Assembly (NCBI GenBank): GCA_032718475.1
Contig: JAUCBJ010008993.1
Span: 1 to 54,879, forward strand
Length of the DNA: 54,879 bases
Direction of reading: 5' to 3'
Origin: Nemertoderma westbladi
Taxonomy: Eukaryota; Animalia; Xenacoelomorpha
Position numbers and translations under genes: made by a program. The notes beneath the pieces are model-generated. The model saw only the letters and a list, made by a program, of their open reading frames with translations. It had not been told where the DNA came from and did not search any database. Positions 15,001 to 51,082 of this stretch are shown here, piece by piece (the first letter of the stretch is position 1; each line of letters opens with the position of its first letter).

Positions 15001-16005
15001 GGCTGAAACGTACTGAACTAGTATCCTGTGATGGGTGGGAACTTACTAAACTAGTACCCTGTGATGGGCGGGAACGTACTGAACTAGTACCCTGGATGGG
15101 CGGGAACGTACTGAACTAGTACCCTGGATGGGCGGGAACGTACTGGACTAGTACCCTGGATGGGCGGGAACGTACTGGACTAGTACCATGTGTTGGGCTG
15201 GAACGTACTGAACTAGTACCCTGTGATGGGCGGGAACGTACTGGACTAGTACCCTGTGATGGGCGGGAACGTACTGAACAAGTACCCTGGATGGGTGGGA
15301 ACGTACTGGACTAGTACCCGGTGTTGGGCGGGAACGTACTGAACTAGTACCCTGGATCGGCGGGAACGTACTGGACTAGTACTCTGTGATGGGCTGGAAC
15401 GTACTGAACTAGTACCCTGGATGGGAGGGAACGTACTGAACTAGTACCCTGTGATGGACGGGAACGTCCTGAACTAGTACCCTGGATGGGCGGGAACGTA
15501 CTGAACTAGTACCCTGGATGGGCGGGAACGTACTGAACTAGTACCCAGGATGGGCGGGAACGTACCGGACTACTACCCTGGATGGGTGGGAATGTACTGA
15601 ACTAGTACCCTGTGATGGGTGGGAACGTACTGAACTAGTACCCTGTGATGGGTGGGAACTTACTGAACTAGTACCCTGTGATGGGTGGGAACGTACTGAA
15701 CTAGGACCCTGGATGGGCGGGAACGTGCTGAACTAGTACCCTGTCATGGGTGGGAACTTACTGAACTAGTACCCTGGATGGGCGGGAACGTACTGAACTA
15801 GTACCCTGTGATGGGTGGGAACGTACTGAACTAGTACCCTGTGATGGGTGGGAACTTACTGAACTAGTACCCTGTGATGGGCGGGAACGTACTGAACTAG
15901 TACCCTGTGATGTGTGGGAACGTACTGAACTAGTACCCTGGATGGGAGGGAACGTACTGAACTAGTACCCTGGATGGGCGGGGACGTACTGAACTAGTAG
16001 CCTGA
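1..16005. repeat. Tandem satellite/minisatellite array of 33/32/31-bp monomers with higher-order repeats; runs off the left edge of the window
   Basis: Monomers GAACTAGTACCCTGTGATGGGTGGGAACGTACT (33 bp) and GAACTAGTACCCTGGATGGGCGGGAACGTACT (32 bp), plus 31-bp variants. Identical ORFs recur at 9586/11617/13680 and near-identical ones at 89/4276. Confidence 0.99.
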
Positions 16006-22037: not shown

Positions 22038-24977
22038 ATGGTTATTATGATTCCGCGATTCTCATTTATCGTTTTCTCTTCATTCTTAATTTGCTCGCCA
22101 CTTTTCGCCGTCGACAAATCAAACTTTAAAACCTGCGAACAAAGTGGTTTCTGTAAACGGCATCGTGCTATCCCGCCCAACGAATCACCCTACGTCGCTC
22201 ACATAGACAACGCAGTGGTTACCCGATACGGTTTCTACGTTCCGCTAGAGAACAAAGTGAGTAACATTGTGCTAAACCTAACCGTTACAGGACTGGAGGG
22301 GCCCGCGTTCAGAGTTCGGATAGACGAGTTTATGCCGTTACGGCCTCGATACGAACCCGAAGATGTTCTTGTTCGCGATCCTATTAAACGTCGAACTGAG
22401 TTCGAGAAGAATTCCCCGACTCGCGCGACGCTTACTATGAACCGGTACAAGGTGATTCTATACGGGGATCCTTTCTCGCTGTCAATTCTGGAGGCCAACG
22501 AGGCTGTTATGACGATAAACTCCCGAGGTTTATTTAAGTTCGAGCATTCGCGAGTACGAGGGGCGTCTAGGACGGTCTCCGAATCGGAGACCTCTAGTGG
22601 GGGAGCGGTGCAATGGTTAAAGGATAAAATATATGGGAGTGAGAAAGAGGGAGACGAGGGGAGCGAGGTGGGAGAAGGGAGCGAAGTAGTAGAGGAGGAG
22701 GTGGGAACACCGGAGGTTGTAGATGAGGTTAATGAAACTCCTACAGACACAGTAGAAGAGCCTGACCAATGGGAGGAGACCTTTAAGTCTCACACAGACT
22801 CCAAACCGAACGGGCCGACTTCCGTTGGGCTGGACGTCAACTTTATGGGTTTCCGAAACGTCTACGGAATCCCGGAGCACGCCGATTCACTGTCGCTACG
22901 GACAACCACCGGCGGCGACCCCTACCGACTCTACAACCTCGACGTGTTTGAGTACGAGGTTAACAACCCGATGGCCTTGTACGGCTCCATCCCGTTTATG
23001 ATCGGCCACAGCGTGCGGCACAGTCTCGGCCTGTTCTGGCTGAACGCGGCCGAGACTTGGGTCGACATCGAACGCTCCGAGGATTCCGCCTCCATCCTGT
23101 CCCGGGTGGCCAGCGCGGTAACGGGTTCGACCCCGGGGGGCGCTGGCGTCCCTTCAGTAGCGACCCATTGGTTCAGCGAGTCAGGGATTATCGACATGTT
23201 CGTACTGCTGGGCCCGCAACCTCGCCAGGTGTTCCGGCAGTACGCGGTGCTCACCGGAACCGCACCGGTGCCGCCGCTGTTTGCCATCGCCTACCACCAG
23301 TGCCGGTGGAACTACATCGACCAGACGGACGTCGCGGAAGTCAACGAGAACTTCGACGTTCACGACATCCCGTGCGACGTGATCTGGTTGGACATCGACC
23401 ACACGGACGGACGGCGCTACTTAACCTGGGATTCCCGGAAGTTTCCGGAGCCGGAAGCGATGATCGCGAACGTGTCGCGTTGCGGACGCCGGATGGTGAC
23501 CCTGGTGGACCCGCACATAAAGAAGGACTCCGGGTACAAAGTCTACCAAGAGTCGTCGGCGCAGAACGGGTTCCTCGTGCGGAACAAGGACGGAACGCCG
23601 TACGAGAACTGGTGCTGGCCCGGAACCTCCATCTGGTTGGACTACATCAACCCAGCGGTGCGTCAATGGTGGGCCTCCTTGTTCTCCACTAATTACTATA
23701 AAGGTTCAACTCTGGATTTATTTACTTGGAACGATATGAATGAACCGAGCGTGTTTAACGGGCCGGAAGTGACCATGCACAAGGACGCGGTGCACCACGG
23801 GGGTTGGGAACACCGGGACGTTCACAACCTGTATGGAATGGCGATGCAGCGGGCCACGGCGGAGGGGCTGGTGCAACGGAGCGGCGGGAAGCTGCGACCC
23901 TTCGTACTGAGTCGCGCCTTCTACGCGGGCAGCCAGCGGTACGGGGCCGTGTGGACGGGGGACAACTCGGCCACCTGGGAGCACCTCGCGCTCACAGGGC
24001 CCATGCTGCTCGCGATCGGGGTCGCGGGAGTGCCGCTGGCCGGCGCCGACGTCGGGGGGTTCTTCGGCAACCCCGAGGAGGAGCTGCTGGTCCGCTGGTA
24101 CCAGGCCGCCGCCTACCAGCCCTTCTTCCGGGCCCACGCGCACCACGACACGCGGCGTCGGGAGCCCTGGACGCTGCGAGAGGCGGCCAATAGGGAGCGA
24201 GTCCGCGCCGCTATACGGGCGCGCTACGCCCTGCTGCCCTACTGGTACACGACGTTCTACCGGAACCACGCGAGCGGGGACCTAGTGATGCGCCCCCTAT
24301 GGGCCGAGTTCCCCGACGATTCGAAGACCTTCGATATGGACCGCGCCTGGATGGTGGGGCCCGCCTTGCTGGTTCAACCAGTAGTCGCTAAGGGCGTCAC
24401 GCAGGTCTCCGTCTACCTCCCCGGTGTCCATAAAACTATTTGGTACGACGCCGCGAACTGGATTAGTTACACCTCCCCGACGACGGTTGTTTACCCTGTC
24501 ACTATGGATACCGTTCCGTTGTTTATTAAGGGAGGAACGATTGTTCCGAGTCGCGAGCGCGTGCGGCGTTCCTCCGCGTTGGGGCTCGAGGATCCGTTCA
24601 CGTTGTTGGTCGCGTTGAACGCGGCTGGGTTCGCCGTGGGGGAGGTCTACATGGACGACGGACGCACGACGGCCAACGTGGTGGACGATCGCTACTCGTT
24701 GCGTAGTCTGCGGTTCGGTGCGGGCGCGTTGCGGTGCGTGTCCGGGGACGGGGGGCGGGGCGTGGGCGAGTTCGGGGCCCCCGTAGAGCGGGTCGTCATC
24801 CTGGGAGTGGGCGCGGCTCCCAGGGGAGTCACCGTGTCCCTGTTGGGAGCCGACGGGGCCGCCAAGCCGTCCAGCTCCCAGCTGGAGTTCGAGTACTTGG
24901 GAGGGACTAAGGCGGTGATCGTGAGGAAGCCTTGGGTGTCTATTGGGGCCGACTGGGAGCTGCGGTTAGTCTCGTAG
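22038..24977 (+). CDS. GANAB: Neutral alpha-glucosidase AB / ER glucosidase II alpha subunit (GH31), single coding exon
   Basis: Signal peptide followed by VDKSNFKTCEQSGFCKRHR; PYRLYNLDVFEY; HQCRWNY; catalytic WNDMNEPS and WTGDN; FFRAHAH. First in-frame ATG is 22038 (the ORF track uses an upstream TTG). Confidence 0.97.
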   Translation: MVIMIPRFSFIVFSSFLICSPLFAVDKSNFKTCEQSGFCKRHRAIPPNESPYVAHIDNAVVTRYGFYVPLENKVSNIVLNLTVTGLEGPAFRVRIDEFMPLRPRYEPEDVLVRDPIKRRTEFEKNSPTRATLTMNRYKVILYGDPFSLSILEANEAVMTINSRGLFKFEHSRVRGASRTVSESETSSGGAVQWLKDKIYGSEKEGDEGSEVGEGSEVVEEEVGTPEVVDEVNETPTDTVEEPDQWEETFKSHTDSKPNGPTSVGLDVNFMGFRNVYGIPEHADSLSLRTTTGGDPYRLYNLDVFEYEVNNPMALYGSIPFMIGHSVRHSLGLFWLNAAETWVDIERSEDSASILSRVASAVTGSTPGGAGVPSVATHWFSESGIIDMFVLLGPQPRQVFRQYAVLTGTAPVPPLFAIAYHQCRWNYIDQTDVAEVNENFDVHDIPCDVIWLDIDHTDGRRYLTWDSRKFPEPEAMIANVSRCGRRMVTLVDPHIKKDSGYKVYQESSAQNGFLVRNKDGTPYENWCWPGTSIWLDYINPAVRQWWASLFSTNYYKGSTLDLFTWNDMNEPSVFNGPEVTMHKDAVHHGGWEHRDVHNLYGMAMQRATAEGLVQRSGGKLRPFVLSRAFYAGSQRYGAVWTGDNSATWEHLALTGPMLLAIGVAGVPLAGADVGGFFGNPEEELLVRWYQAAAYQPFFRAHAHHDTRRREPWTLREAANRERVRAAIRARYALLPYWYTTFYRNHASGDLVMRPLWAEFPDDSKTFDMDRAWMVGPALLVQPVVAKGVTQVSVYLPGVHKTIWYDAANWISYTSPTTVVYPVTMDTVPLFIKGGTIVPSRERVRRSSALGLEDPFTLLVALNAAGFAVGEVYMDDGRTTANVVDDRYSLRSLRFGAGALRCVSGDGGRGVGEFGAPVERVVILGVGAAPRGVTVSLLGADGAAKPSSSQLEFEYLGGTKAVIVRKPWVSIGADWELRLVS

Positions 24978-28078: not shown

Positions 28079-29303
28079 TGTTCGCGCTTTTAGACCTTTG
28101 GCAGTTTAACCCGCCAAATTAGGATGTCTTCTAGATAATAAATCACCTTTAGTCTATGACAAGTATTTAATTCACTACACTAGTCGAAACCAATCTGTGC
28201 GCGATCATTCACCCGCTGGATATACCCGGGAGATTGGGTTCGACGGCTTAATTTTATTGCTATGTAAGCCTAATGTATTATTCGACTGACAGTATTATAT
28301 AATCTCTGACAATATTATTCACCTTCGGGGAATATTAACAGTTCCTTTAGGACGTGGCGCTCTATCTATACAAACAGAGTTATGACTTAAACTACTCACA
28401 ACGATGTGGCTTAGTTATAATTCACATATATGGCGCATTCTTTAGGAAATGCTTCGTTATCAGTCTCACTCATACACAATGCTGCACAATACTGCACACT
28501 GATCTGCCGATCTTCACTGATTTTAGTCACATATAAAAGGAACACGGACCGAATCATGTAGGGTCTATCAAATAACATTAGATTCACTTCAAACCACTTT
28601 AACATAAGTCACAATTGTTATATGTAACCCTTCTCTCTTACCTTCAGTATATCAAGAATATTGGGTTTCGGGGTTATTTATCGTTATTCCAAATATAATA
28701 ATTCATCAACCATATTATGAAGAACTGACAGTAAATAGCAGTATAACAATATAAAGTATGCACAGGTTGTTTGATTAGGTATGGTATGTTATGTTGTGAT
28801 AAATGCAGATAACGGATATATGTCCTTATAATTAAGCCTACTAGTGTAGGGCTAAAGCCGTTCTTCCTGGCTTAGAATCACCAACAACACTAAAAACTGA
28901 TAAGAATAACTATAAGAATACCAGCTACCCTTATTCTACAAAGATCTCACCCATCACAGAGAATGAGCATACAGATAGGAAATTCAGTTCAGTAGATCTG
29001 TGATAGGTCAAAATCAAAACCAACTCAAATCCTATTGGCAGATACAGAAAGCAGGGCTATGGGGCAACGTGGCAATATCAGCCGTTAGCCGTCGTCATGG
29101 TAGCGACACTGTTTTCAAGAGTATCGAGCTTTTACGTCACGAAATTGCAGATTATGTCCTCTAAAGTACAAATACAGAAGAAATGGCTTTTATGTCCTCC
29201 AAAACACCAGTACAGCAAGGACACGGCCCTTTTATGCCTGGTAAACCAACCACAGAGTACTTTACAGGGATAATAACCGGCTAATTACGCAAAAGCTTTT
29301 ACA
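28079..29303 (-). repeat. 3' LTR of BEL element 1 (1225 bp)
   Basis: Direct repeat of 38463-39698; sense termini TGTAAAAG...CGCGAACA. Confidence 0.95.
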
Positions 29304-29311
29304 CCGCTCCC
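29304..29311 (-). promoter_or_regulatory. Polypurine-tract-like plus-strand primer site
   Basis: Sense strand GGGAGCGG immediately before the TGT of the 3' LTR. Confidence 0.6.
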
Positions 29312-29772
29312 AGAAAATGGGATTTAAGTCTATAAAATATAACAAATCACAGTTTCTAAAATATAAAGATACTCTAAACAGTTAGTCTTTCTTACGCAGA
29401 CGGCGTTTAAGCAGTTTTTGAGGCTAGCAAGAGTCCTTTTCTCTTTGGGGCGAGCCACTTTACTAGGAGGGCTATAAATCCTGGGTGAAGGGTGCAATAT
29501 GATTGCATCAGAAGGTGTAGGATTATGGTCGGGGTATCCGCCGTTTCGATATGCTTCTCCTCGAGCTGATTTTCCTCCGCTCGTAGCTGGATACGTTCAT
29601 CCAAAACTCTCGCAGAGAATAGGGTTTTCTAAGCTTGATATCTTCTTAGAGATTCGAGATTTCCCAATCGAACTGAGATAAGGCCAATTCGTTTATCGAT
29701 TGGACTTACTGTTATAACTTACGTTTATCTGAACAAACGCAGGTTTCTTTTTTGATCTTTATAGAATAGCGT

Positions 29773-30903
29773 TTAACTCGTTTGGTACAACGTTCTCCGC
29801 CACTTTGGTGACAGGTTATATCGTGTCAAGCCGGGACGATGGTAAGGGTTAAACGGCGATATTAAATGTCCGCGTCCCAATCCGGCTAGGTAGGATGGGC
29901 TAATATCTAAGAAACCCACAACTGGGGTGCCACCGACTAATCGTTCAGGTAACACCAGATCTTTGAGCAGTGAGTACAGCTCGGGAGGATCCGTCATACT
30001 AATAGGATCAAGAGTCTGAGGCCTCACTAGGGAATGAGGAGCTCTGATCGAGTATTCCGAAACTCTGATCATTGGTTTATTTAAGGATCGTCTGAGTCGA
30101 ACGAGCGTAGGTGATACATTGAACAAGTTTCGCTCGAAACTCCCGTAAGTATAGCGAGTAAAACCGTGTTTAAAGCAACGTCTCCGCGGATGTTTATGTC
30201 TTTCCGTTTGTTGGTTGGGTCTTGGGCATTCATCGCAATAATACCCAAAAACGTACGTCTTGTAGGGGAAACGCGAGTGATCTTTCTCCAGCTTACAATA
30301 TTCCTCCATCCGTTCGAAGCTATTCGGTACAACAGGTAGCGGTCGATCGGCGGTAAGATACATCATAGGGGAATCGAGCCGTTTGAGTTCTACCATGCGG
30401 TCATGATGTATACCTTGAGGATATCGAGTTTCTAGATTTTGTTGACTGGCAATATTGAGATATGTTTCTATCAGGAATTCCAGATAATCGTTGAAGTCGC
30501 TGCGTTTATCCGGCTCCTCAACGTCTTCTCTTTCGAGTCTGTTTCGAATAGAATTCTCGTGTTCCATTCTCGGTTTATCGTTCCGCCTCCGCTGGGTAGG
30601 ATATTTCAATCGTACCATTTCCCTTTTGGTGTCGACATTGTCCGTATCGTGTAAATCGATAGGATGACCAGTAGTTAAGAAGTCCACATACGTACCATTA
30701 CGATGCGTATAGCGAGCGGTGAATTTCTTATAGTCCAACTCACGCGTGAGCTGCTCTTGGGACATTGGCGGTTCGATATAACGATCATCGTCCTCCGCAG
30801 CAGTTGGACCAGCGTCGCCGTGTATCAAGCTATCAACAAACGCTTGTAAAGGTAGAGTATATCGCTCCCTGATACCAAGATCATCTTCTATCAACTCAAT
30901 CAT
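29773..30903 (-). CDS. Accessory ORF of unknown function (376 aa) in the env position of BEL element 1
   Basis: Intact ATG-initiated ORF in AT-rich flanks, same strand as gag. Contains CDEC-x16-CFKH. No signal peptide or transmembrane segment visible. Confidence 0.8.
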   Translation of the reverse strand: MIELIEDDLGIRERYTLPLQAFVDSLIHGDAGPTAAEDDDRYIEPPMSQEQLTRELDYKKFTARYTHRNGTYVDFLTTGHPIDLHDTDNVDTKREMVRLKYPTQRRRNDKPRMEHENSIRNRLEREDVEEPDKRSDFNDYLEFLIETYLNIASQQNLETRYPQGIHHDRMVELKRLDSPMMYLTADRPLPVVPNSFERMEEYCKLEKDHSRFPYKTYVFGYYCDECPRPNQQTERHKHPRRRCFKHGFTRYTYGSFERNLFNVSPTLVRLRRSLNKPMIRVSEYSIRAPHSLVRPQTLDPISMTDPPELYSLLKDLVLPERLVGGTPVVGFLDISPSYLAGLGRGHLISPFNPYHRPGLTRYNLSPKWRRTLYQTS

Positions 30904-31734
30904 ATCTGCTATATAAATTTATCCATATTATAATGAGTTTATATTTAGGTGAGCAGGCGTCGCTGCCTACCCCAATCAGCCCCAGGACAGTGCGAGATCC
31001 TCAGCGCCGATGTGTCGTCGCCGCTGTACTTTCGCCAACGACGTAGCCGCACAACGACAACGACAACCGGCACAAGTCACTCGACTGTCCGTCCCAAAGG
31101 CTTAGATACACCTCAGGTTCTTACTGGAGAGTTAGGGTTACTTTCACAATTGCGACTTGCTACTGTAAACACACCTTAGTAGTAACATTCGCCTATAAAC
31201 TCACAAATACCACACACACAACTTGTCACAAATTACACACACTCGGGTCACTTGTCCGTTAGTCAATGCCTTCCAGAATGTCACTGTATTATTATGTATC
31301 CTTGGATACTATCAGTGCACTATTTATTCCCTATGCTATTCAATGGGACAAGCTTTCTATTGTTCTCTTAACTCAATTCTAATTCTAGCGTGGTTGTTGC
31401 TATGGTGACATTATGTAAAGCTAGCGGTAGAATTAGGGTAATTCCAATGCATACAGATCTGGGATGTTATTTAATAGTAATTCTTTAATAGTCAATGTCC
31501 TGTTTTATACATGACTTTATGAATTTTATCGGCTATTGACTATGTTTGGGAGACTTCGCACACTCATACTCATAATAAGATAAATCTCCGCTCCCTTGAT
31601 CTATTAATTAATGGAATTTTGGGAATGTTATAAATTGCGTAAAAATGGCAATTTATTAAATTCATTAAAAGTCATGAATTTAAATTTATTCCCTGAAATT
31701 TTATTATTTGATAATTAAATTGACATATTTTGAT

Positions 31735-32040
31735 TCTAGAACATGTCTGGGGACACAAGATCCTTAATTCTATGACAATTGTCTTTTTAAGAATATCGGT
31801 AAATGCTACGATATCTTAATTGACTAGAATTGTTGAAGGATCTGAATTTTACAGATTTTGATTTATTAGATTTGCAAATATTAAAGAATTAATATTTGAG
31901 ATGGGCACCAATTTATTCCAGAACTTGTCTGGGGACGTTAACCACTGATTCTAAAATTTGTCTTTCAAGTATATCGGTGGGTGCCGCGATATCTTAATCG
32001 ACTAGAATTACAGATGGTCAAAGGGTTTAACAGATTTATT
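31735..32040. repeat. Degenerate ~180-bp direct repeat in the 3' non-coding region of BEL element 1
   Basis: GAACATGTCTGGGGAC...GATATCTTAATTGACTAGAATT (about 31739) versus GAACTTGTCTGGGGAC...GATATCTTAATCGACTAGAATT (about 31921). Confidence 0.75.
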
Positions 32041-32555
32041 TTGCGTTATACGCCACTGTTAAAGGGACATCACGCTACTATATGTATTATTTAATATACG
32101 GTATGAGAGCAATATCGCACGAAGCAATGTCAGTGTGAAGAGGCAAGTCGTTTCCAAGGTCTACCCAGAGCTTGGTTTAGCCAAGACACGAGGATCTGAA
32201 CTTTGCATTCCTAATACTCTGCCTACCAATAATACTTGAATATAGTAGTGGCTTTATTGTACTTTAATAAGTACGGACATTTCATCTTACTGTAGTTACG
32301 TATTTGTAATGTAATACGGACAGTAAGGAAGAAGGAAAAGAATTATTTCTTGCCGTCGCACTAAATATAATATATACGTAATTACGTACGCAATAAACAC
32401 GAATATATTGCACTATTCTACTAAATAATCGCTAAATAAGATTCTACTAAATTAAATAAAACGATTATAATAAAATTACGTAGTAATACATACATAAATA
32501 TAAAAATAATAAAATAATATAAAATAATAGGGTCACACACCCACTCCATATGTTT

Positions 32556-35500
32556 TTACGTTATGGAGTCCCTAGATGTTTGAAGGATTAGGGAGGTGGT
32601 CGTGGGAAGAGAATCTTGCCTTCCACAGTTTCCGGAGAGTCCTCCATTCCCTTCCGGTAAACACAAACGACCAGCTGGGCGATTGAGTCGCTGCATCCCG
32701 AATACAATTCCAGGTTTCCTCTTCGTCCTGGAATAGTGACGATAGAAACATCGCTCTAAGTACACGACGGCCTTACAAAGCCGATTCCAGGAGCTATAGT
32801 GGTCCGTCGCTCCCTGCAGGAGAGGTGAGAGTCCCTGCGAGACGTCTGATGTTCCAGAGCTCCAATCGCTCTCTCTGATCTTCATGAAGGATCCACTCGC
32901 GGTGGGGAGGTCCAGATCCACGGCGTCGTCCCTGGCAATATGTAATACCGACAGATCTATCCCGGGTTCAAATAACTCCGCTCCACCCGTCCGGGTTTTA
33001 GCTTTAACTTTCTCCGCTCCCTTGGCTGGTCTAATCTCAGTCGGAGTAAGATGGGGAGGCCATTCATCCTCCTTACTCAGGAAGTCGGGTTCACCTAACC
33101 GGTCTGTAGTATCTGTCAGTTCTTGAGGAGTTGCTCCTCTGGAAGCGATGTCAGTTGGATTAAACTTCTTGGGGCAATATCTCCATTGATCTACATTGGA
33201 GCTAATATCGTCATTATCTGAGGAGTATGGTGTTCCCTCAGTTGGGTCGTCTCCCTCACTAGTATCATCTTCCCATTCACTCACCTGGCAGACGCGATCT
33301 TGAAGCAGTCTTTCTCTGAGCGTTCTACGGGAAGGTCCAGTAAGGTACCAACCTACTCTAGTTCTTACCGCATAGGTCTGAAGTGGTTGCGGTTGAGTAG
33401 GTCGTTTCTCTAATGTCTCCAGCGCCTCATGCGCGTTTTGACCGATTAATATTTGTACTCCAGGATAATCGGTGTCGAATCTAGGGATGTTAAGTTGTTG
33501 GGCATGATCATCTTCGTCCCAATTATAAGGTTCCACTTGGGTGGTAGCGAAGTTCTTTATTGCCACCATTTTTACTGACCTTATACTGTATTCTCCTAGT
33601 TTATCCTGTGGAGTGGACAACTCACCTATATAATAGTCGGCAGCTACAGTAGAATTCCAAACCTGCATGATCCCTGACATGTTTAGCTTGGTTCGGAACT
33701 TGGGTTGTCCAGCAAAGATGACTTCGGCTAGTTCTTTATCGATGAATGTTCCTGTGCTACCGGAGTCCAGGAGGGCGTTCACTATATAGCTCTTCTGAGG
33801 TCCGTGGACCCGTAACTGGACTACAGGAAATTCTCGGATTCCTATATTGGAAGTTGGCGCTTTCCAAGATGGTTGTTGATCTGAAGTAGTTAGGGTGAGG
33901 TCGCTGTCTGTGTCTTTCTCATACATGAGTGCTCGATACACTGCGGTGGTGTTTATTAAGTAACAGGATTCGTTTTCGTTGGAGAACTCGTCCGTATAGA
34001 ATCCTTCCATCTCAGATTGATCAGTGTCGTTCACATCACTGAATTGGACATGTAGTTCGGACTCATTTACCTGACTCGGGCTGTTTCGTTCGAATTCCGT
34101 GTGCAACAAGATATGATGTTTTGCGCCGCACTTTGCACACCTTGCGTCGGAGTAACAGGTTCGCCGTTGGTGTCCTCGTCTGAGGCAATTATAACACAAC
34201 CGCTTATCCCACATGACTTCACGTCTATCCTTTAGTGATTTCCTCAGGAATTTATCACACGCATTTAAACGGTGGGGCCCGTCGCACAGCACACATTTCG
34301 GCTTGATGTTACTTACTTTAACCTGTGCTATGTGGTGCACACTTGTTCTTTCCTCGGGCTTTCTCACCTGAATTATTTTAGGAGACGTAGGAAGGGTTTT
34401 TTGTACCGGTTCCCTTCTGTCATTGGGTCGAGACTCGGATTTACTTACCTGATCTTTAGGCATTTTATTGACATAATAAGATCTGTCAGTGTCTTTCCCG
34501 CTGTCCTCTCCTTGAGAAGTTTGGCTTTCACCATCGTCGGTATAACATACTGGTGTTACCCTTCTCCTAGAAACGGGTTTCTCACTTACCTTGTTTTCCA
34601 ATGTCTTCTCTCTGGACTGCCTTAGGAGCTGTAATTTCACTTCTCTATCTAAGAATGACATGAGATCAGTCATGGTAGGGTCTCGTCGTTGTTGTTCCAT
34701 CATATATAACACCTTCTTATCCCAGCGTGTACCTACTCCACCCTTGGGCAAAGTAGATGCTAAGGCTCCTACAACCATAGAATTCTGGTATTCATGAGAC
34801 TTACCTAACCAATCTAGTTGTCTACAGATCTCCTGAATCTCATCGGAAAACTCTATAATCCCGCTGCTAAGAAACTTTCGGGGCGCCATTAATTTCGCAT
34901 ATAAATACCTAGCTATGTTAGTCCTATTACCATACCTGATGTTTAGTGTATCCCAAACTTGTCTTAATCCATCTGGATGTCCAATAAATTTTAACGCCAT
35001 TGACTTGGGAGGTCCTTCCAAACATTCGATGAGGAATCTAAGTTTCTCTCCGTTAGATAGTACAGAGTTCTGTATGTTATCTTTGTAATATTCATTAAAA
35101 GGTAACCATTTCATCTCATCTCCATTGAACTTGACGATCTCTCCAACCTTTACCGCTTGTTGGGCTTCGGTTCTAGCCATTTGGCGTGTAAAACTTTCTT
35201 GAGCCATCGCATTATTGAATAGAGAATTATCGGTATATAAGTTTCTCGGATTATTATCAAGTCTAGATGAGATATCATTATCAACAGGTTTATAATTACC
35301 CTTAATAGGGTTCACTATAGGAGTTTCTATTTCGCTAGCAGTATAGATGCGTGTAGGCTCCACACCTTGCGCATGGGATACTTCAGACCTAACGGGTTGA
35401 CACATTGTTACAGGGGGTGGTGGTATACCCTTTTGTAAATTGACTAATTTATCGCGTTCTAACGCGATACTTTGCTGCACCTTTTGCAACTCTAACCTAC

Positions 35501-36161
35501 TTTCCCTTACTGTTCCCTTGAGCTGCTGAACAGTCTCTTCCATTTCCCGGACCTGCTGAGAGGAGCACAAACAGTGTTCCCTCAGCTGCTCGAGCAGGAG
35601 ACCCATCTCCCGTCGTCCCTCAGCTACCCACTCAACCGCCGAAGCGGGAGTCGCCAACGTTGTAGCGGGCGAGCGAGAGACGACGGGCGATAAATTCTTA
35701 ATATCTCGCTCGGCGTCCAGGATGGGTTCGGACTCGGGAACAGTCCTACTGGGCACAGGTAGTTTAGTACTGTGCAAAGGGAATCTAGAGGTGGTTTCTG
35801 GGAGCACAGGTGTCTCTAGCACCGAAGGGGTGTCTTCGAGAACAGGCCTAATTATTTCAGGCTCATCTGTTATAGTAGGGAGTCTTTCTACTGTAATAAT
35901 TTGGTCTGTGGGTTCTGTACCACAGAGAGTTCTGTAATACGCTAGATAGTCTGCATTATCCAGATGCATTCTCACCTCAGGAGGTACCCTCCGCTTGAGC
36001 ATCCGTCTACGTCCGCTTGAACGAGATTTATTACCTCTACCTTCGGGATCTCTTATATCACCTTCATCGGAGGAGGCAAATCCCTGTCTTCTGATTTGTC
36101 TCCTCAAGTCTGCTTCTGCCACTGCCTCTGCCGCTTTTCTTTCCGCTTCTGCTGTTGCCAT
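32556..36161 (-). CDS. gag-pro: BEL/Pao Gag-protease fused in frame to remnants of the RNase H end and integrase C-terminus
   Basis: DUF1759-like KFNGDEMKW...EKLRFL; triple zinc knuckle CVLC..H / CYNCL..GH / CAKC..HH; protease LLDSGS; then WRYCPKKFNPTDIASRG and RPAGRLCL. First ATG is 36161. Confidence 0.92.
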   Translation of the reverse strand: MATAEAERKAAEAVAEADLRRQIRRQGFASSDEGDIRDPEGRGNKSRSSGRRRMLKRRVPPEVRMHLDNADYLAYYRTLCGTEPTDQIITVERLPTITDEPEIIRPVLEDTPSVLETPVLPETTSRFPLHSTKLPVPSRTVPESEPILDAERDIKNLSPVVSRSPATTLATPASAVEWVAEGRREMGLLLEQLREHCLCSSQQVREMEETVQQLKGTVRESRLELQKVQQSIALERDKLVNLQKGIPPPPVTMCQPVRSEVSHAQGVEPTRIYTASEIETPIVNPIKGNYKPVDNDISSRLDNNPRNLYTDNSLFNNAMAQESFTRQMARTEAQQAVKVGEIVKFNGDEMKWLPFNEYYKDNIQNSVLSNGEKLRFLIECLEGPPKSMALKFIGHPDGLRQVWDTLNIRYGNRTNIARYLYAKLMAPRKFLSSGIIEFSDEIQEICRQLDWLGKSHEYQNSMVVGALASTLPKGGVGTRWDKKVLYMMEQQRRDPTMTDLMSFLDREVKLQLLRQSREKTLENKVSEKPVSRRRVTPVCYTDDGESQTSQGEDSGKDTDRSYYVNKMPKDQVSKSESRPNDRREPVQKTLPTSPKIIQVRKPEERTSVHHIAQVKVSNIKPKCVLCDGPHRLNACDKFLRKSLKDRREVMWDKRLCYNCLRRGHQRRTCYSDARCAKCGAKHHILLHTEFERNSPSQVNESELHVQFSDVNDTDQSEMEGFYTDEFSNENESCYLINTTAVYRALMYEKDTDSDLTLTTSDQQPSWKAPTSNIGIREFPVVQLRVHGPQKSYIVNALLDSGSTGTFIDKELAEVIFAGQPKFRTKLNMSGIMQVWNSTVAADYYIGELSTPQDKLGEYSIRSVKMVAIKNFATTQVEPYNWDEDDHAQQLNIPRFDTDYPGVQILIGQNAHEALETLEKRPTQPQPLQTYAVRTRVGWYLTGPSRRTLRERLLQDRVCQVSEWEDDTSEGDDPTEGTPYSSDNDDISSNVDQWRYCPKKFNPTDIASRGATPQELTDTTDRLGEPDFLSKEDEWPPHLTPTEIRPAKGAEKVKAKTRTGGAELFEPGIDLSVLHIARDDAVDLDLPTASGSFMKIRESDWSSGTSDVSQGLSPLLQGATDHYSSWNRLCKAVVYLERCFYRHYSRTKRKPGIVFGMQRLNRPAGRLCLPEGNGGLSGNCGRQDSLPTTTSLILQTSRDSIT

Positions 36162-37514
36162 TGCCTCTGCCACCTTCCTTTCAAGACACTGTCCAAGTCT
36201 AATTTTGTTTGTACAGTTGAATGCCTACTGCTATATTACAGTTAAAGCAAGTCTAGTAATTCAGTATCACTGCTAGCCTAGTAATTAATTACCGATACTG
36301 CTACTCAGTGTAGCGTGATATATATAATATATTAGAATACCGGTATGCTTATAGTATATATAAGTATTATTACAGACTAGGTTTATCACAGAATACCAGT
36401 ATAATTTTAGCACAAATATATATAAATATATAATAGGCCTATCGGGAATACCAGTATACAGCTTACAGCTTGTAGTATATATAAGTATAATTCTGTACTA
36501 GAATTAATTACAAGTACCGGTATAATTTCAGCCGAAATTTATAGAAATAAAGATAATAGGCCTATCGTAAATACCGGTATATCAATTATTTTAAATAATT
36601 GAATTTCTGAATTTTAGGGTTACTTTGTTACTTTACTTACTTTATTACCGTTATTCGAGCAGTAGTCCAACTGATATTGAGACCTAATGGTTGTATGGTA
36701 GGCCTACTATTTATAAATCGTTAGATTTGATTTATAATATATATATACCCGTTTTAATGGGTTTTGTCAATGTTTGAAATAAATGTTATTATTTCTGGGG
36801 AGTAATCACTACACAAAGCGGTGCGCTTTCAGTGAAGTGTTACTTATAGGACACTAAAACAAATAATACTAATTTACCTAAGTTACTTAATACTACAAAT
36901 TACGTACAATTCGGGTGAGATTACAATCTCTAAATAAACACAAAAATTTACAAAAAACACAAAATACGAATTTTCAGGGTAATTTTAAAAGAAGTCTACA
37001 AACCAGCCTAACAAAGGGTTAGAATCTGGTTATTACAACGGACAGGGTACTACGGTATTTGAAAATAATAAGTAGTAGTAAAATACACTGCGTTGTCCAG
37101 ATAGGAAAATACCACCGCCTGACGACCTATAGCCGTATCGCTATAGGTACTACGTTATGTATCACGGAGTGTCCCTACCTAGAAGTTAATAGAGCTAATC
37201 GAACGTGCCTATCAACCAGTTTACAACACAAATATAATGCCTACACTAATTACTTTCGGAAAGCACTGTACACTAAACCCTAAATTAGGTACGAGTACTT
37301 GTACAACATATAATCAGTAGTTAAATATACTTGAACAGCTAAAAGAACCACGGCATCTGCTGGAGTGACCGATGCACAAAATCACCAGTCTTTACCTACG
37401 CCAAGCAGCCCGTGTAGTACCGGGGTTAATTTAACTATAGCGGTATGTATAACAAACACAATTACTGTAGGAACAAACTTGGGGAATGAATGTTGCGAAT
37501 AATCGCATAAACTC

Positions 37515-38100
37515 TGAATAATAAATATTACGCTACGCGTACAAACCACTCAAACAAAATGCAGACCAAATACTGACAGACTACTATCAAGCCTAAATAA
37601 ACTACAGGACATGCAGACTCCGAAATGATTAGGTAGTATGCGTTCTAACCCAGTAGTACGACTTATTCTTTAGTTGGGGGTTTACCTTACAGTATTTGCT
37701 GCCCCTACTTCCTAACCGTTCTTTATCGGACAGGTGATCTACACACACTGCAATCCGTTCAGACCTAATAACAGCCAGACAACTATCCAGCCTACAAATT
37801 ATCTAAATAAATATTATACGCTACCCGTACAGACTTACACAAACAAAGTACAGACTAAACGATGGCAGACTACTCTCAAGCCTAAATAAACTACAGGACA
37901 TGCAGACTCCGAAATGATTAGGTAGTATGCGTTCTAACCCAGTAGTACGACTTATTCTTTAGTTGGGGGTTTACCTTACAGTATTTGCTGCCCCTACTTC
38001 CTAACCGTTCTTTATCGGACAGGTGATCTACACACACTGCAATCCGTTCAGACCTAACAGCAATCAGACAACAGCTCAGCCTACAAATTGTCTGTACAAT
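37515..38100. repeat. 289-bp tandem duplication in the 5' leader of BEL element 1
   Basis: AAGCCTAAATAAACTACAGGACATGC at 37589 and 37878, with about 200 bp of identical core. Confidence 0.9.
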
Positions 38101-38267
38101 CTGATCAGGCTTACACGCCTTCTGTTCAATACTGGCCTACAAACAAATAAAACCGACAGAAACAAGTAAAATCTCAATAAAAAACCAGGGCGGCCGTTCC
38201 CTGATTAAGTACTAAGACCTACCGGTATATAACTATCAAATTCGAATAATACTAATGTACTTATACT

Positions 38268-38420
38268 GGAAGTACCGGTTAGGACAGTTGGGCCTACGGA
38301 CCTACAGAAGTACCGGTTCTGGCAGTTGGACCTACGGACCTACAGCAGTACCGGTTCTGGCAGTTGGGCCTACTGACCTACAGAAGTACCGGTTCAGGTT
38401 TACCGGTCAACCGGTACTTT
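38268..38420. repeat. ~38-bp tandem repeat (about 3.5 copies) at the start of the leader of BEL element 1
   Basis: GAAGTACCGGTTCTGGCAGTTGG(G/A)CCTACGGACCTACA; almost identical copy at about 53107-53260. Confidence 0.9.
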
Positions 38421-38450
38421 CAACTTTATTGCTTACTGCAATAAAGAAGC

Positions 38451-38462
38451 TATATCCGTTAT
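38451..38462 (-). promoter_or_regulatory. Non-tRNA primer-binding site of element 1, complementary to its own LTR
   Basis: Sense ATAACGGATATA abuts the 5' LTR and is the exact reverse complement of the sense sequence at 39204-39215. Confidence 0.8.
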
Positions 38463-39698
38463 TGTTCGCGCTTTCAGACCTTTGGCAGTTTAACCCGCCA
38501 AATTAGGATGTCTTCTAGATAATAAATCACCTTTTGCCTATGACAAGTATTTAATTCACTACACTAGTCGAAACCAATCTGTGCGCGATCATTCACCCGC
38601 TGGATATACCCGGGAGATTGGGTTCGACGGCTTAATCTTATTGCTATGTAAGCTTAATGTATTATCCGACTGACAGTATTATATAATCTCTGACAATATT
38701 ATTCACCTTCGGGGAATATTAACAGTTCCTTTAGGACGTGGCTCTCTATCTATATAAACAGAGTTATGACTTAAACTACTCACAACGATATGGCTTAAGT
38801 TATAATTCACATATATGGCGCATTCTTTAGGAAATGCTTCGTTATCAGTCTCACTCATACACAATGCTGCACAATACTGCACACTGATCTGCCGATCTTC
38901 ACTGATTTTAGTTATATATAAAAGGAACACGGACTGACTCATGTAGGGTCTATCAAATAACATTAGATTCACTTCAAACCACTTTAACATAAGTCACAAT
39001 CGTTATATGTAACCTTTCTCTCTTACCTTCGGTATATCAAGAATATTGGGTTTCGGGGTTATTTATCGTTATTCCAAATATAATAATTCATCAACCATAT
39101 TATGAAGAACTGACAGTAAATAGCAGTATAACAATATGAAGTATGCACAAGTTGTTTGATTAGGTATGGTATGTTATGTTGTGATAAATGCAGTTTTGTT
39201 ATGATAACGGATATATGTCCTTATAATTAAGCCTACTAGTGTAGGGCTAAAGCCGTTCTTCCTGGCTTAGAATCACCAACAACACTAAAAACTGATAAGA
39301 ATAACTATAAGAATACCAGCTACCCTTATTCTACAAAGATCTCACCCACCACAGAGAATGAGCATACAGATAGGAAATTCAGTTCAGTAGATCTGTGATA
39401 GGTCAAAATCAAAACCAACTCAAATCCTATTGGCAGATACAGAAGGCAGGGCTATGGGGCAACGTGGCAATATCAGCCGTTAGCCGTCGTCATGGTAGCG
39501 ACACTGTTTTCAAGAGTATCGAGCTTTTACGTCACGAAATTGCAGATTATGTCCTCTAAAGTACAAATACAGAAGAAATGGCTTTTATGTCCTCCAAAAC
39601 ACCAGTACAGCAAGGACACGGCCTTTTTATGCCTGGTAAACCAACCACAGAGTACTTTACGGGGATAATAACCGGCTAATTACGCAAAAGCTTTTACA
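38463..39698 (-). repeat. 5' LTR of BEL element 1 (1236 bp)
   Basis: Direct repeat of 28079-29303 with 10-bp and 1-bp indels. Confidence 0.95.
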
Positions 39699-40439
39699 GC
39701 TAGATTATGGTAGTCAAGTACAGTAGAACGTTCAATTCCGACGTAAGAGGAGCGTTCGGGGTATTAATTGCTTCTTAGAATGGCCACGAAGGTTGCTGCT
39801 GGTCCATCCCAGACAGGTACACCTTAACACCTATTGGCTATGGGTAATCCTTCATGGTGACACACACGCACCATTATTTATGGGTCATAATTGGGGTGGA
39901 TTATGTTCTATTTTCTACTCATGTCCTTAGACATCTTGAAAAAGATGGCCCCCTACAGGAGGGACACCCACTACTTGTTTCTTGAAGTACTGTAGGGGAA
40001 TAATCCAGCCAAACATGTATCCTACTGATATAGACTTTGTTTATGATTTAGGAGTTATGTAGGCCTAGGCCTACACGTTCGTGGGGCCTTCGCGCAGCAC
40101 GAGGCCCAGTTATGAGATACAAATTAAAATTGTGCGACTGTATCACAAAATCAGGTTATGAGAGATTAACCCACACCACCAATTAATCAAAGAAAGGGGG
40201 ACAGTACGTGTTCACCCCTTTTAATCTGCACCCCCCCCCCCCCCTCCCCCACCCACCAATACATAACCGCGACATCTACCACCCACGGAAGGGTAGCACG
40301 AACTTATTTCCAAACGCACGTTCAATATGCAAAGCCAGGTGGTTTATAGGAATATAATCAATGCAGTACTCGTCTTCATTATAAGCCTCTTTGCGTTCGA
40401 CCTGTTTTATATTAAAATATATTTATTAAACGGAGGCTG

Positions 40440-40802
40440 ACGCTCTTTATAATAATAATACCTAGGGATGCCAGCTTCCAGACTTTCAATCTTTACTGCC
40501 ACGCAAACCCCGCAGAGGAAGTTTTGGTTTAAGAGATCAAGCCCATCGGCAATTGGTGTTTCAATTTCGGTCCAGGAACTCTGACAATGGGAGCATTCAA
40601 TCTTAGCTGCGGTCCATTCCCGTGGTTTCGGCTTCCTTTTCTTCGTCCCAATGACAGATTCTTCTGAAGACGTTCGATTCGCTTTCAGTTTATTGTTGGC
40701 GTTTGTGTTTTGAAGTTGTATTCGAGTGGACAGTCGCGCCGGTTTCGAGGTAACCATACCGACCTGTGATAAGCGTTGGTTTTGTTGAGTGCCGGTATTC
40801 AT
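40440..40802 (-). pseudogene. Probable LINE (CR1/L2-type) ORF1 fragment with a PHD-like Cys cluster
   Basis: IECSHCQSSW...FLCGVC followed by coiled-coil-like KIESLEAGI, then an abrupt change to AT-rich sequence. Confidence 0.45.
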
Positions 40803-43571: not shown

Positions 43572-43843
43572 GCTGCACGAAGGCCCCACGCAAATTCTAC
43601 TTGGAAAATTTTCAAACTTTTGCCAAACAACATGTGTACCAAGTTTGGATAGATTTCATCAAGGGTTGGCCGAGTTATTAACGTTTAAAATAAAATACTG
43701 AAAAAAAACGCGACAGAACGACAGAACGACAGGTTGATTAATGGTACCACTACGCTAAGGCTCTCTCACTTCGTGGCTCGCCCCACAGGTTGATTAATGG
43801 TACCACTACGCTAAGGCTCACTCACTTCGTGGCTCGCCCCACA
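43572..43843 (-). mobile_element. Helentron/DINE-1-like non-autonomous repeat with a duplicated ~57-bp end
   Basis: Reverse complement of 45488-45690. CAGGTTGATTAATGGTACCACTACGCTAAGG...CGCCCCA occurs twice in tandem. Confidence 0.7.
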
Positions 43844-44950
43844 GTACCATTTTAATTATCCATGGATACAATTACGATTACAAATTACGATACAAAATAC
43901 GATTTTTCGATTCTATGGAATAGGAGGCCTTAACCCACCACATTGTATTTCATGTGGACGCAAATATCTTTAAATTTCCTGAGCTAAACATGAGAGTTTT
44001 ATTTTATGTGGGGATGCAATATAACTTTAAATAATATAATCAATCCAGTTTAGAAGTGAGTAAAAAGTATATTATTTCTTAAACAAATTATTTATCATTA
44101 TTATTATTATATTACAAGAAAACATTAGAACAAAGTAAACATTATTACAAATCGTGATACAATTTATTGTATGCAATTAAAAAATAAAGTGCAAACTAAC
44201 TATGGTCAACTAATTAAACGCGGGAATTTTAAAACGTAGATTATCAATGTTTGACGTAGGCCAACTGCAGTAAACTGTGTTCATGTGTACTGTTGGTGGA
44301 GGGAGAGCAGCAGAGGCGGGTGTTATACAGTTATACGTACTTCAGTATCAGTACTCTACTCAGGTACTGACTGCTTATGTTTCACTGTTTGTGCAGCTTG
44401 CAATTAGTTAGTGACAAATTACTATTCTGCCATTAGCAGATTAGGTAACCATACTAGCCAGTCTACGGTCTACCGGCAGACCGGTACCTTGTTTCTTGTT
44501 AGGCCTATTCTTCTAGACTCAAAACAAAACTTTATCTGCGGACCGTGGTAGTGCAACTGATTAACTGTCCTTTATCCTGTTTTATCTGTTTTTATAACAA
44601 TTTTCCCAGGTAATCCTGTCATTGCGGTACAGCGGTTGTGCGGTATATCGTAAAATTTTTGTTGTAGTCAGTAGTAGTATCTGTAGATCTGAGTACTGGA
44701 GTATAGTACGTAGTCGTTATTAGGTACTATTCAGGTACAGGTACAATTCCATAATACTGTAATATTTCGTGTTCGCTATTCAGTGTGTCCAGTCCATGAA
44801 CTCGAGGCTTATCAAAAAGCCATCAGCTATCATAAGCCTTAAAAGTATTGCATTGTTTGGACTGTCTGCCTGTAGTAGGACGCTAGTTTGTACTGTTATA
44901 AAGCTGTAATCGTGAAATGTGCAGCACTGTAGTAGTCTTTCAGTTTATCG

Positions 44951-45310
44951 ATGAATGTGATGATGGCTTCGAAAGCAATCTGTATAACAAACTTATGGAC
45001 TAAATGCCGATTGAATCTGTCTGGCCAACTATTAAGCAGAATCTACCCGTCCAGAAGTTTGAGTAGAACTGTTCCGCGGTCGACTCCCATGCACGTTCCT
45101 ATGCCATACGTGCTGGAACAAACGCAATTCGGCGAACGCGCCTACGACCTGTACTCGAGACTACTGAAGGACCGTATAGTCTGCCTTATGGGACCGGTTA
45201 GCGACTCCCTATCAAATACTGTCGTCGCCCAGTTGCTGTTTCTCCATTCGGAAAGCGCAAAGAAACCGATCCATTTGTACATAAATAGTCCCGGGGGTGT
45301 TGTATCCCAG
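44951..45310 (+). CDS. clpP: First coding exon of mitochondrial ATP-dependent Clp protease proteolytic subunit; downstream exons not in this window
   Basis: Arg/Ser-rich transit peptide, then [30 protein letters not shown]...[21 protein letters not shown]. Donor GTAAGG at 45311. Confidence 0.93.
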
Positions 45311-45487
45311 GTAAGGTCGTAGAATATCAGCTCAGTACTGTAAGTTGGATGTATAGGCCTACACATTTACACGATTTCATTAATTACATACGTAACTTAA
45401 TAACATTAGATGCTACGGCAATAATTGTTATTGCAACATTGGATGGGACAGAGCAAAATATTATTCATTGTTCATGTGCATTTTCTT

Positions 45488-45690
45488 GTGGGGCGAGCCA
45501 CGAAGTGAGTGAGCCTTAGCGTAGTGGTACCATTAATCAACCTGTCGTTCTGTCGTTCTGTCGCGTTCAATTTTAAACGTTAATAACTCGGCCAATCTTT
45601 GATGAAATCTACCCAAACTTGGTACACATGTTGTTTGGCAAAAGTTTAGAAATTTTCCAAGTAGAATTTCCGTGTGGCCTTCGAGAAGCT
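45488..45690 (+). mobile_element. Helentron/DINE-1-like non-autonomous repeat in the clpP intron
   Basis: GTGGGGCGAGCCACGAAGTG...(CTGTCGTT)n...TAATAACTCGG...CCAAACTTGGTACAC. Confidence 0.7.
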
Positions 45691-46117: not shown

Positions 46118-46169
46118 AGTACTCTGCGTTGATACCACTGCTTAAGCAGTGGTATCAACGCAGAGTACT
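46118..46169. other. Library adapter dimer (SMART / PacBio ultra-low-input amplification adapter); assembly artefact
   Basis: Perfect 52-bp palindrome AGTACTCTGCGTTGATACCACTGCTT + AAGCAGTGGTATCAACGCAGAGTACT. Confidence 0.98.
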
Positions 46170-49100: not shown

Positions 49101-51082
49101 ATTGGTATGCCCTTTTGTATATTGACTAATTTGTCGCGTTCTAGCGCGATACTTTGCTGCACTTCTTGCAATTCGGCCCTACTTTCCCTTACTGTTCCCT
49201 TAAGCTGGTGGACAGTCTCCTGCATCTGTCCGAGCAGGAGATTCATCCCCCGCCGTCCCTCCTCTACCCACTCGACCGCCGAAGCGGGAGTCGCCAACAT
49301 TGTAGCGGGCTGACGCGGGACGACGGGAGACAAATCTTTGATTTCTCTCTCAGCTTCCAGGACAGGGATATTCTCATGGACTGTTCTACCGGGTACAGGC
49401 AGTGTAGTACTGTGTAAAGGGAATTTAGAGTTAAGCTCTGGAAGTACAGAGGTCTCTAACACAGAAGTGACTTTGGGAACGACAGGCCTAATTATTTCAG
49501 GCTCATCAACTATTGTAGGGAGTCTTTTGACCTGAACAGTTTGGTCTATGGGTTCCGTACTACCTAAGTCTGTGCTAGCTAGCTGTCTTTTAACAGCTGG
49601 GGGCAAATCAGGCAATTTGTGACGGTGAGATGTTTTTCTACGCCTGCTTAGACGAGATCTATTTCCTCCGCCTTCAGGATCGGTGGTTTCGCTTTCCTCC
49701 GATGATGTGTATCCCTGGCGTTTGGGAGTAGATCGTCTCATCATCTGCATTTGCCTAGCAGTTAACTGTTTATTTATGTTGTCTTGCGTCTCTTGCAGAT
49801 TTTCCAACTCCAGTTGGGTAGTCTGCTCAGAGGCTCTCCGTTCTGCTTCTGCCACTGCCTTTGCTGCCTTTCTTTCTACTTCTGCTTCTGCCATAGCCGC
49901 CGCCTTTTGTTCCTCTATCCGTCTTTTCTTTATTTGTTCTTCTTGAACTCTAGCGAGGCGGAGTTTTTCATCAAATTCTGCTTGGTTAGCAGCTAACATT
50001 TCAGCATCTATCGAGTCTAACACACGTTGGGTTCCTTCACTATTAGGGGAAAGTCCAGACAGCCGTCTCCTCAACTCTTCGTCTCCTAGGAATCGCTGAT
50101 AGTCGGACAGATAAATGTCTATAGCGTCTCTCGTTCGTGGTCTCTCTGCGGTCTCTTCGCCTTCTACTTGAGGAAGGGTGGCATCGGTTGGTTCTTCATA
50201 GGTTAGTCTCTCAGACAGCTGGGATTTCCACTGGTCTGTTTCTTGTACTTGGAGACCTACCCGCTGGAACCAAGTTTTGACAGCAACCTGCAGCGACGTG
50301 TCCTGTCTTCTTTTGGAAGTTTCCTCAAAAGCTGATAGGATTAGCCGAATGCATAGGGTTCTTTCGCGTACTTGATATAGCAGTTCTTCCTGCTCTTGAG
50401 GTCCTTGGGGTTGTCGAAACAGTTGTTCTTCCAATCGCTCTAAGGAGCCGAAGAATCCCTGCACATATCCTGCTGCCGACCTCTTCCAAACAGCTGGATC
50501 CATCGTATCTTTAGCCACTCCCATCCTGTGTATATCTTCCCAAGTAGCCTCGGACAGATCTAACGGGAGTCCGGGTCCGGGAAAGTTCCATTGTGACTCG
50601 ACAATAGACATCAATTCTTCCCTGGCGTATCCCGCATAATTATCTTGGGTCGCTCGCTTATTTCTCGCCCAATCTGCTTGATGTTCCTCCACCGCAATCA
50701 ATATAGTTGTTAGCACTGCGGCAGGAAGGGTGAGAAGGGGGTCCGAGTAGGCTTTAGCCGTCATCTGCAATCCGCGTTCGGGGGTCAGTTCGACAGTATC
50801 CGAACTACTGGAGCTATCTGATCGCTGGGAACAAGTTTCTTGACTAGGCTGTTGCTGCTGTGGGACAGCTGCTTCCTGGTTCCGTTTGACTTGGGCCCGA
50901 GTGCCGATGATAGACCTACGGTGTTGGATTAGCTTAGGGTCCGATATCACTACTGGAGGGATGACTTTTCTTTCAGTAGGAGGTGAGCTGAACTCCTTTC
51001 TTAATCGCTCAACACTCCTATCTGTGTCACAGATGGTTGTATCGATTAGACTGTCTGACAGGTTTTGCTGAGTGTCAGACAT
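46170..51082 (-). CDS. gag-pol: BEL/Pao Gag-Pol polyprotein (Gag, protease, N-terminal RT); 3' end lost at the artefactual junction
   Basis: Uninterrupted ORF of about 1637 aa. YYLTHHYV.KPGK...RVVFDGSA, SLNSELLPGPNL, DIEGMFLQV are BEL RT motifs. The final VLCVDTTA* is translated adapter. Confidence 0.95.

Follow-up and report, generated by a model that had tools for sequence, protein, structure and literature searches.

The window, i.e., the whole stretch of 54,879 nucleotides of the Nemertoderma westbladi contig JAUCBJ010008993.1 that was analysed, contains on its minus strand an LTR retrotransposon (element 1) and part of a relative of it (element 2). Element 1 begins with a 5′ LTR (TGT...ACA, 38463–39698) that has a donor-like AAG/GTAAG at 39029, followed by a 2.2-kb leader (36228–38462), a gag-protease frame of 1201 amino acids with a DUF1759 match and a lost Gag N-terminus (32556–36161), an AT-rich spacer (30904–32555), an orphan open reading frame of 376 codons in the env position (29773–30903, ATG to TAA, here called ORF-X) and a 3′ LTR (28079–29303) that follows a short purine run and has AATAAA at 28258. 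The LTRs are ~1.23 kb each, both TGT...ACA, and differ by 23 substitutions in 1228 nt (1.9%); their length and TG...CA ends were counted as fitting BEL/Pao elements (0.2–1.2 kb). No target-site duplication was found and the flanks mismatch at 4–6 nt, so that the LTR-derived age of element 1 itself is uncertain; copies may have recombined, or the structure may be a chimera made during amplification.

The assignment to BEL/Pao follows from 55 relatives of the element 2 polyprotein, most of which carry PF05380 (Peptidase_A17), PF03564 (DUF1759) and PF18701 (DUF5641); in the window, PF03564 was matched with E values of 2e-13 and 5e-12. A BEL-type Gag with DUF1759 and Cys/His boxes is encoded with the protease in one frame with pol, and the order PR-RT-RH-INT is represented by remnants, namely the start of RT in element 2 and, in element 1, the terminal part of RNase H followed by the last integrase motif. 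The 18-nt primer-binding site for tRNA-Arg or tRNA-Gly expected of BEL/Pao was not seen in either window copy, the 47 nt that follow the LTR of element 1 and the corresponding 60 nt of element 2 being free of TGG. Hairpins of 9–10 bp lie directly after the 5′ LTR in both elements (38446–38424 and 53286–53262, minus), that of element 1 (9 bp) at the expected primer-binding site; a hairpin in place of a TGG site might mean that priming is unconventional, or might serve in packaging. Each leader also holds one tandem duplication of 230–290 nt (37520–38093 and 52435–52935), of 288 nt in element 1, where each unit contains a donor-like AGGTAAAC.

The domain content of element 1 was read by comparison with nine of the 55 BEL relatives. 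An in-frame deletion near 33200 has removed RT and most of RNase H, and a second one, between 32723 and 32687, the integrase except for its last motif. A single frame still carries the core of gag, the protease, the terminal part of RNase H (E 2e-10) and the last integrase motif, seen with six of the nine relatives at E values above 1. Both deletions stay in frame to the natural pol stop, and since the natural end of pol is retained, ORF-X sits 3′ of the true pol end, in the slot of env. The first-pass annotation of this DNA had described ORF-X as intact in an element that had lost RT and integrase, and this was borne out, Gag's N-terminus, RT, the larger part of RNase H and the core of the integrase all being missing.

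Element 2 and the remainder of the window

Element 2 (gag, protease and the start of RT; 46142–51082, minus) is 76% identical to element 1 in amino acids. Its Gag has a very long N-terminal region, ~750 residues before DUF1759, that matches nothing in Pfam, and no locus for its polyprotein was found in metagenome or viral contigs. It ends at a perfect 52-nt palindrome (46118–46169) composed of two PacBio ultra-low-input amplification adapters, the sequence of which is given in the excerpted text of PMC13694257. The palindrome joins the RT of element 2 to unrelated DNA, which makes the window chimeric there and the truncation an assembly artefact; a small animal, whose DNA was amplified before sequencing, is the probable source. 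The 3′ region of element 2, the possible place of a second ORF-X, lies outside the window, and element truncations in this assembly deserve distrust.

Elsewhere, a single-exon gene for a 979-residue glycoside hydrolase of family 31, GC-rich compared with its surroundings and glucosidase II alpha-like by inferred name, occupies 22038–24977 (plus). The first exon of a ClpP gene (44951–45322, plus) lies between inverted repeat copies of 200–300 nt (43572–43873 and 45457–45689), the gene running toward the adapter junction. Positions 1–16000 are occupied by a strongly G-skewed satellite, the 32/33-nt units of which show higher-order periodicity at around 2 kb, and an open reading frame of 131 residues with two CxxC pairs and only sub-threshold Pfam matches is found at 40407–40802 (minus).

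The open reading frame in the env position

In a six-frame scan of 29304–31300, ORF-X was the sole long open frame. When the stretch between pol and the LTR was shuffled 500 times, no shuffle reached 153 codons, the longest ATG-initiated frame having 152, and the analytic probability of a frame as long as ORF-X is ~1e-9; its length excludes chance. An alternative or antisense frame at the same place, suspected at one point from the fact that 8 of 12 listed variable sites fell at first codon positions, was ruled out by many stops in all five other frames and by a 40-site sample that was uniform by codon position.

The predicted protein is hydrophilic, with a GRAVY of −0.85 and a highest 19-residue hydropathy of 1.19, an acidic N-terminus (net charge of −9 in the first 40 residues), a basic Cys/His centre and Arg-rich patches mid-protein and at its end. 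The centre holds a CxxC-x16-CxxH motif (CDEC-x16-CFKH, 30237–30166, minus; C223, C226, C243 and H246) with a His/Arg-rich loop, a predicted zinc site that takes up three of the four cysteines. An exact CxxC-x(8–25)-CxxH arose in 0.015% of 20,000 residue shuffles of ORF-X, and any two Cys/His knuckles in 2%. A simple hydropathy scan detected no signal peptide, no membrane helix and no C-terminal anchor, and there are three N-x-S/T sites. A leucine-rich segment at residues 309–318 (29950–29979, minus) fits the export-signal pattern L-x3-L-x2-L-x-L as a putative and weak match, such a pattern appearing in 4.1% of the shuffles in its strict and in 77% in its loose form. The description of ORF-X in the first-pass annotation, as an intact hydrophilic protein encoded after pol and ahead of the 3′ LTR with this motif in a basic His/Arg patch and no signal peptide or transmembrane helix, agreed with all of these measurements. 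The AlphaFold prediction that it had proposed was run from the single sequence and yielded a pLDDT of 31.9, i.e., an unusable model.

ORF-X was compared with a broad range of libraries, and no relative was found in any of them: no Pfam family appeared at E values up to 1, zinc-finger families included, and there was no match in a set of 5.8 billion proteins (near and shorter lengths), in 1.84 billion representative proteins, in the Atlas (with the whole protein or residues 130–300), in an exact look-up, in metagenome and viral contigs or among the 55 BEL polyproteins. The best E values against PDB sequences, and against PHROGs and NCBIfam, were 1.5 and 1, respectively, and the rest of the window holds no second copy. 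The earlier view of an uncharacterised, non-env frame in a BEL element has thus stood up, both in the lack of relatives in the protein libraries and in the BEL/Pao context; a match to a known env or a captured host exon, named in advance as evidence against it, was looked for and not found, and a captured host exon had no supporting match in the protein sets searched.

The spacer between the pol stop and ORF-X (1652 nt) contains 18 ATGs and is a putative intron or internal promoter. A second gene within it was considered and rejected, there being no open reading frame over 76 codons; its GC-richer part (30950–31300, minus), in which short frames rich in Cys and Arg are interrupted by stops, is possibly a decayed upstream coding piece. 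Directly ahead of ORF-X, an acceptor-like TATAGCAG (30906–30913, minus) ends at 30906, leaving 2 nt to the ATG; it has no pyrimidine tract, but branch-like motifs lie upstream of it at distances of 32 and 48 nt. The same sequence stands ahead of gag in both elements, at 36228 (in the leader of element 1) and 51108, as had been noticed at first sight; its recurrence proved less telling than it had seemed, because the gag copies of elements 1 and 2 are homologous and their sites count once, and because the ATG that follows the gag site of element 1 lies 66 nt downstream and is not adjacent. Nor is the 8-mer significantly enriched: the window has five where 2.05 would be expected, a number attained in 10 of 100 shuffles, and 12 of the 52 YAG sites in the spacer pass an equally loose acceptor filter. 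None of 15 listed contig joints out of 105 ends at the ORF-X acceptor, contig joints being uninformative on splicing. Contig depth over ORF-X falls below that of the spacer in X1 and X3 but exceeds it in X4 (runs are designated by X numbers); depth cannot rank the parts. Since 18 upstream ATGs bar scanning, a spliced origin of the ORF-X message is nevertheless plausible.

Other copies and the evidence for selection

Element DNA was found in six of seven listed runs from four studies. In the four runs that were compared, one of which may be the source of the window, all 30 bins of element 1 were covered, ORF-X included, with many contigs below 90% identity; ORF-X therefore belongs to a multi-copy family and is not a single insertion. 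The second deletion junction of element 1 is spanned by a contig of X5, a run presumed to be of RNA, other contigs from all four runs skip ~320 nt more at that junction, and the first junction (near 33200) was not bridged among the pieces listed. Deleted derivatives thus exist outside this assembly, and the in-frame deletions together with the further 320-nt skips suggest a replicating derivative that has gag and protease only.

Variation in ORF-X was followed with the contigs of the four runs over 29990–30400 (codons 169–304), using the best 40 of 130 variable sites, a selected third of which 31 lie downstream of 30160 (codons 248–294). These 40 comprise 13 synonymous, 25 non-synonymous and two stop-creating differences, spread over the codon positions as 14/14/12, i.e., with no third-position bias. 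With 29% synonymous changes expected under neutrality, the omega-like ratio at these best 40 of 130 sites is 0.85 (95% CI 0.42–1.79), a value to be read with the limit that most genomic copies are probably dead. The gag-protease frames of elements 1 and 2, which are 18% apart, show 257 synonymous and 263 non-synonymous differences, 56% of them at third positions, and a ratio of 0.42 by the crude measure applied to ORF-X; ORF-X (best 40 of 130 sites) differs from them with Fisher P values of 0.048 for synonymous versus non-synonymous changes and 0.0017 for third positions.

The variation extends to the putative zinc site, where the first Cys codon is variant at 30236 in 9%, 15% and 77% of the contig depth in X1, X3 and X4, while C226, C243 and H246 are unchanged among the best 40 of 130 variable sites. 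Seven indels, all single-base, were listed in 29990–30400, among them insertions at 30292/30295 and deletions at 30244/30246. Five of 32 listed pieces, drawn from all four runs, span both places with two gaps and zero net change in length, so that the insertion and deletion cancel and the frame is shifted for ~15 codons and then restored; such compensating pairs point to selection on the ORF-X frame. A deeply covered, divergent contig (X3 record 10, X4 record 18) has 41 differences in 283 nt from the window copy. Of its four single-base deletions, three are clustered in 29 nt over the first knuckle and the other lies at 30160, and codon 280 of the ORF-X frame is a stop; its subfamily is therefore unable to produce the complete protein. 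Neither open reading frame of element 1 is hit by any of the 12 best-supported indels (P 0.0007 for both frames, 0.11 for ORF-X alone).

The first-pass annotation had taken the openness of ORF-X in a deleted element as a sign of function, an argument that does not hold, as the probability of neutral survival of the frame since insertion (0.95% change) is 0.39–0.73 at the LTR-derived age. Since the split from the divergent subfamily, the corresponding values are 0.27 for substitutions alone and 0.02 with frameshifts if only 4% of the change belongs to the lineage of the window copy, and 0.11 and 0.001 if it is 7%. The same annotation had named a dN/dS near 1 with frequent stops in other copies as what would speak against it, and here the outcome was divided: the omega-like ratio, the two stops, the seven single-base indels and the changed first Cys codon (best 40 of 130 sites) lean toward that outcome, whereas the indels that compensate in pairs, and the probably dead state of most genomic copies, do not. 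We read the data as a frame that was probably kept in the lineage of the window copy until recently, with an amino-acid constraint that is weak or shifting, and that was lost in other sub-lineages.

These figures bear most directly on the idea that ORF-X is a passenger, captured from an unsampled virus, transposon or host gene, once coding and now unselected, and carried along with the 3′ cis signals, intact by luck. It is an explanation to be taken seriously, if on balance unlikely. The near-neutral ratio, the flat distribution over codon positions, the stops, the indels and the variable cysteine are what it would predict, as is the neutral survival since insertion; in addition, among nine listed sites at which at least 80% of the X3 depth differs from the window copy, seven are non-synonymous. 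It is opposed by the compensating indel pairs, by the low survival since the subfamily split (0.001–0.27, depending on the assumption) and by the lack of a donor gene in the sets of 5.8 billion and 1.84 billion proteins. Moreover, the 15 gag sites among those listed (seven of them synonymous) likewise did not reject neutrality (P 0.11). In the bdelloid rotifers, as far as the available passages of PMC5408684 go, variation of ORF3 within genomes is mostly neutral, as is that of gag and pol, so that neutrality among genomic copies is no proof of a lack of function.

Candidate roles of ORF-X

The preferred reading, to which we give a probability of about one in three, is that ORF-X would be a trans-acting, fast-evolving and soluble regulator of the element's own RNA, by analogy with CERV of Cer1. 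It is favoured by a frame beyond chance length, the low neutral survival since the subfamily split, the compensating indels, the Arg patches, the acidic N-terminus, the absence of a membrane segment and the Cer1 precedent, and weakened by an undetected amino-acid constraint, the variable first Cys, the subfamily with a broken frame, an acceptor 8-mer that is not rare and has no pyrimidine tract, and the weakness of the export-signal match. In its more specific form, in which ORF-X is a BEL/Pao regulator of a new protein family, made from spliced RNA and exporting or shielding the element's own genome, it is a doubtful though possible proposal. The 18 ATGs of the spacer would prevent translation of ORF-X from genomic RNA by scanning, and a spliced or internally initiated RNA would be required. 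Given the donor-like site of the LTR and the acceptor-like sites ahead of gag and of ORF-X, the genomic RNA would contain introns and an export factor would be needed; if splicing from the LTR leads to both gag and ORF-X, export of the genomic RNA has to take place in unspliced form, a task for which a basic zinc-knuckle protein translated from the spliced message is the known answer. The putative Cys/His knuckle and the Arg patches might bind this unspliced RNA, and ORF-X, a predicted zinc binder probably made from spliced RNA, might then take it out of the nucleus. A protein that acts in trans would be dispensable for most copies, which would explain the decay in many of them.

The precedent is the env-position frame of Cer1, a Ty3/Gypsy element of C. 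elegans, which, in the excerpts available of PMC10309623 and PMC3315495, has no homologue outside the genus, is expressed from a spliced mRNA and has invariant Cys and Arg residues needed for export of the genomic RNA. According to the same portion of PMC10309623, CERV is, like ORF-X, a large non-env frame located after pol and ahead of the 3′ LTR, soluble and an orphan outside its host group, and its Cys-rich putative zinc site with Arg resembles the predicted zinc site of ORF-X. The two differ in that CERV belongs to a Gypsy element, has N-terminal exons in common with Gag, invariant cysteines and a proven function (PMC10309623, in part), whereas ORF-X belongs to a BEL/Pao element and has its own ATG, a motif in CCCH order and a variable first Cys. 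The likeness is one of features: neither Pfam, the representatives, PDB sequences nor the AlphaFold model tied ORF-X by sequence or structure to CERV, to Rev or to an RNA-binding fold, and CERV is absent from the matches to ORF-X in the sets of 5.8 billion and 1.84 billion proteins.

Among BEL/Pao elements, Cer7 of C. elegans carries an extra ORF. The profile of the Belpaoviridae by the ICTV gives env-like third genes only (PMC8742986), and those described in the partial texts of PMC13524379, PMC554778 and PMC3118150 are the F-type env of roo, those of Tas and Cer7 and the Chuviridae/gB-like ones of mosquitoes. They have the element family and the slot in common with ORF-X (PMC8742986 and, in part, the other sources) but are membrane glycoproteins that resemble viral fusogens, while ORF-X lacks a signal peptide, a membrane helix and any pattern of cysteine bridges. 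No non-env extra frame of a BEL/Pao element was found in the portions of the literature searched, with nothing specific on such frames in the sections available of PMC8220671 and PMC13269885; Repbase, GyDB and supplements may hold cases.

Non-env third frames are known from LTR retrotransposons of bdelloid rotifers, where the text available from PMC5408684 lists DEDDy, GDSL, coiled-coil and TM types. Like ORF-X, they are family-specific, with a spliced message expected and near-neutral variation among genomic copies, and TelKA2n, a non-autonomous derivative without most of pol, kept its ORF3 as element 1 did. They differ in that the clades named there are Juno, Vesta, TelKA and Mag, not BEL/Pao, and in that the enzymatic ones have recognisable domains and ORF-X has none. 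The additional frames of plant elements (PMC7264820, in extract) are likewise orphans, with their origin unknown, that are carried by many copies, but they are often antisense or have membrane segments and are reportedly conserved like the other genes, whereas the conservation of ORF-X is weak. ORF-X is a real orphan accessory frame in a BEL/Pao family, at best CERV-like in its working and assigned to no family.

The near-neutral change might also be the outcome of an arms race, with purifying selection and positive selection both at work. Tas/Tax-like transactivators and anti-piRNA and anti-chromatin factors are the analogues here, and ORF-X would be an anti-silencing factor directed against piRNAs or chromatin, or an activator of the LTR. 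An open frame with many amino-acid changes, an acidic N-terminus combined with a basic Cys/His centre, and the abundance of the element family in all four runs agree with such a role, which we consider unlikely, since the stops and frameshifts in well-covered contigs suit decay equally and no homologue of ORF-X was found among known silencing suppressors in Pfam, the 1.84 billion representatives or PDB sequences. Other roles at the level of the particle are improbable, whether in chaperoning or packaging RNA, in targeting integration as an adaptor or as a host-cell effector: basic patches and a possible zinc site suit nucleic-acid binding in general, and nothing supports these roles specifically, the Cys/His boxes of BEL being already present in Gag. 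A degenerate env or fusogen is largely refuted by the lack of a hydrophobic N-terminus, the low maximal hydropathy, the few cysteines and N-x-S/T sites, and the absence of any similarity to F, gB or G fusogens in Pfam, the 1.84 billion representatives, viral contigs or PDB sequences.

The export of intron-containing genomic RNA by LTR elements and their escape from silencing are known for few animal elements. Should ORF-X be no more than a decaying passenger, it would add another to the orphan ORF3s. If it is the regulator proposed here, it would follow Cer1 as a second, testable example of a retrovirus-style accessory regulator in an invertebrate retrotransposon; the lineage would then be a “complex” member of the Belpaoviridae, having acquired a Rev/CERV-like or anti-silencing gene independently of retroviruses and of Cer1, and its accessory protein would serve a swarm of deleted copies in trans.
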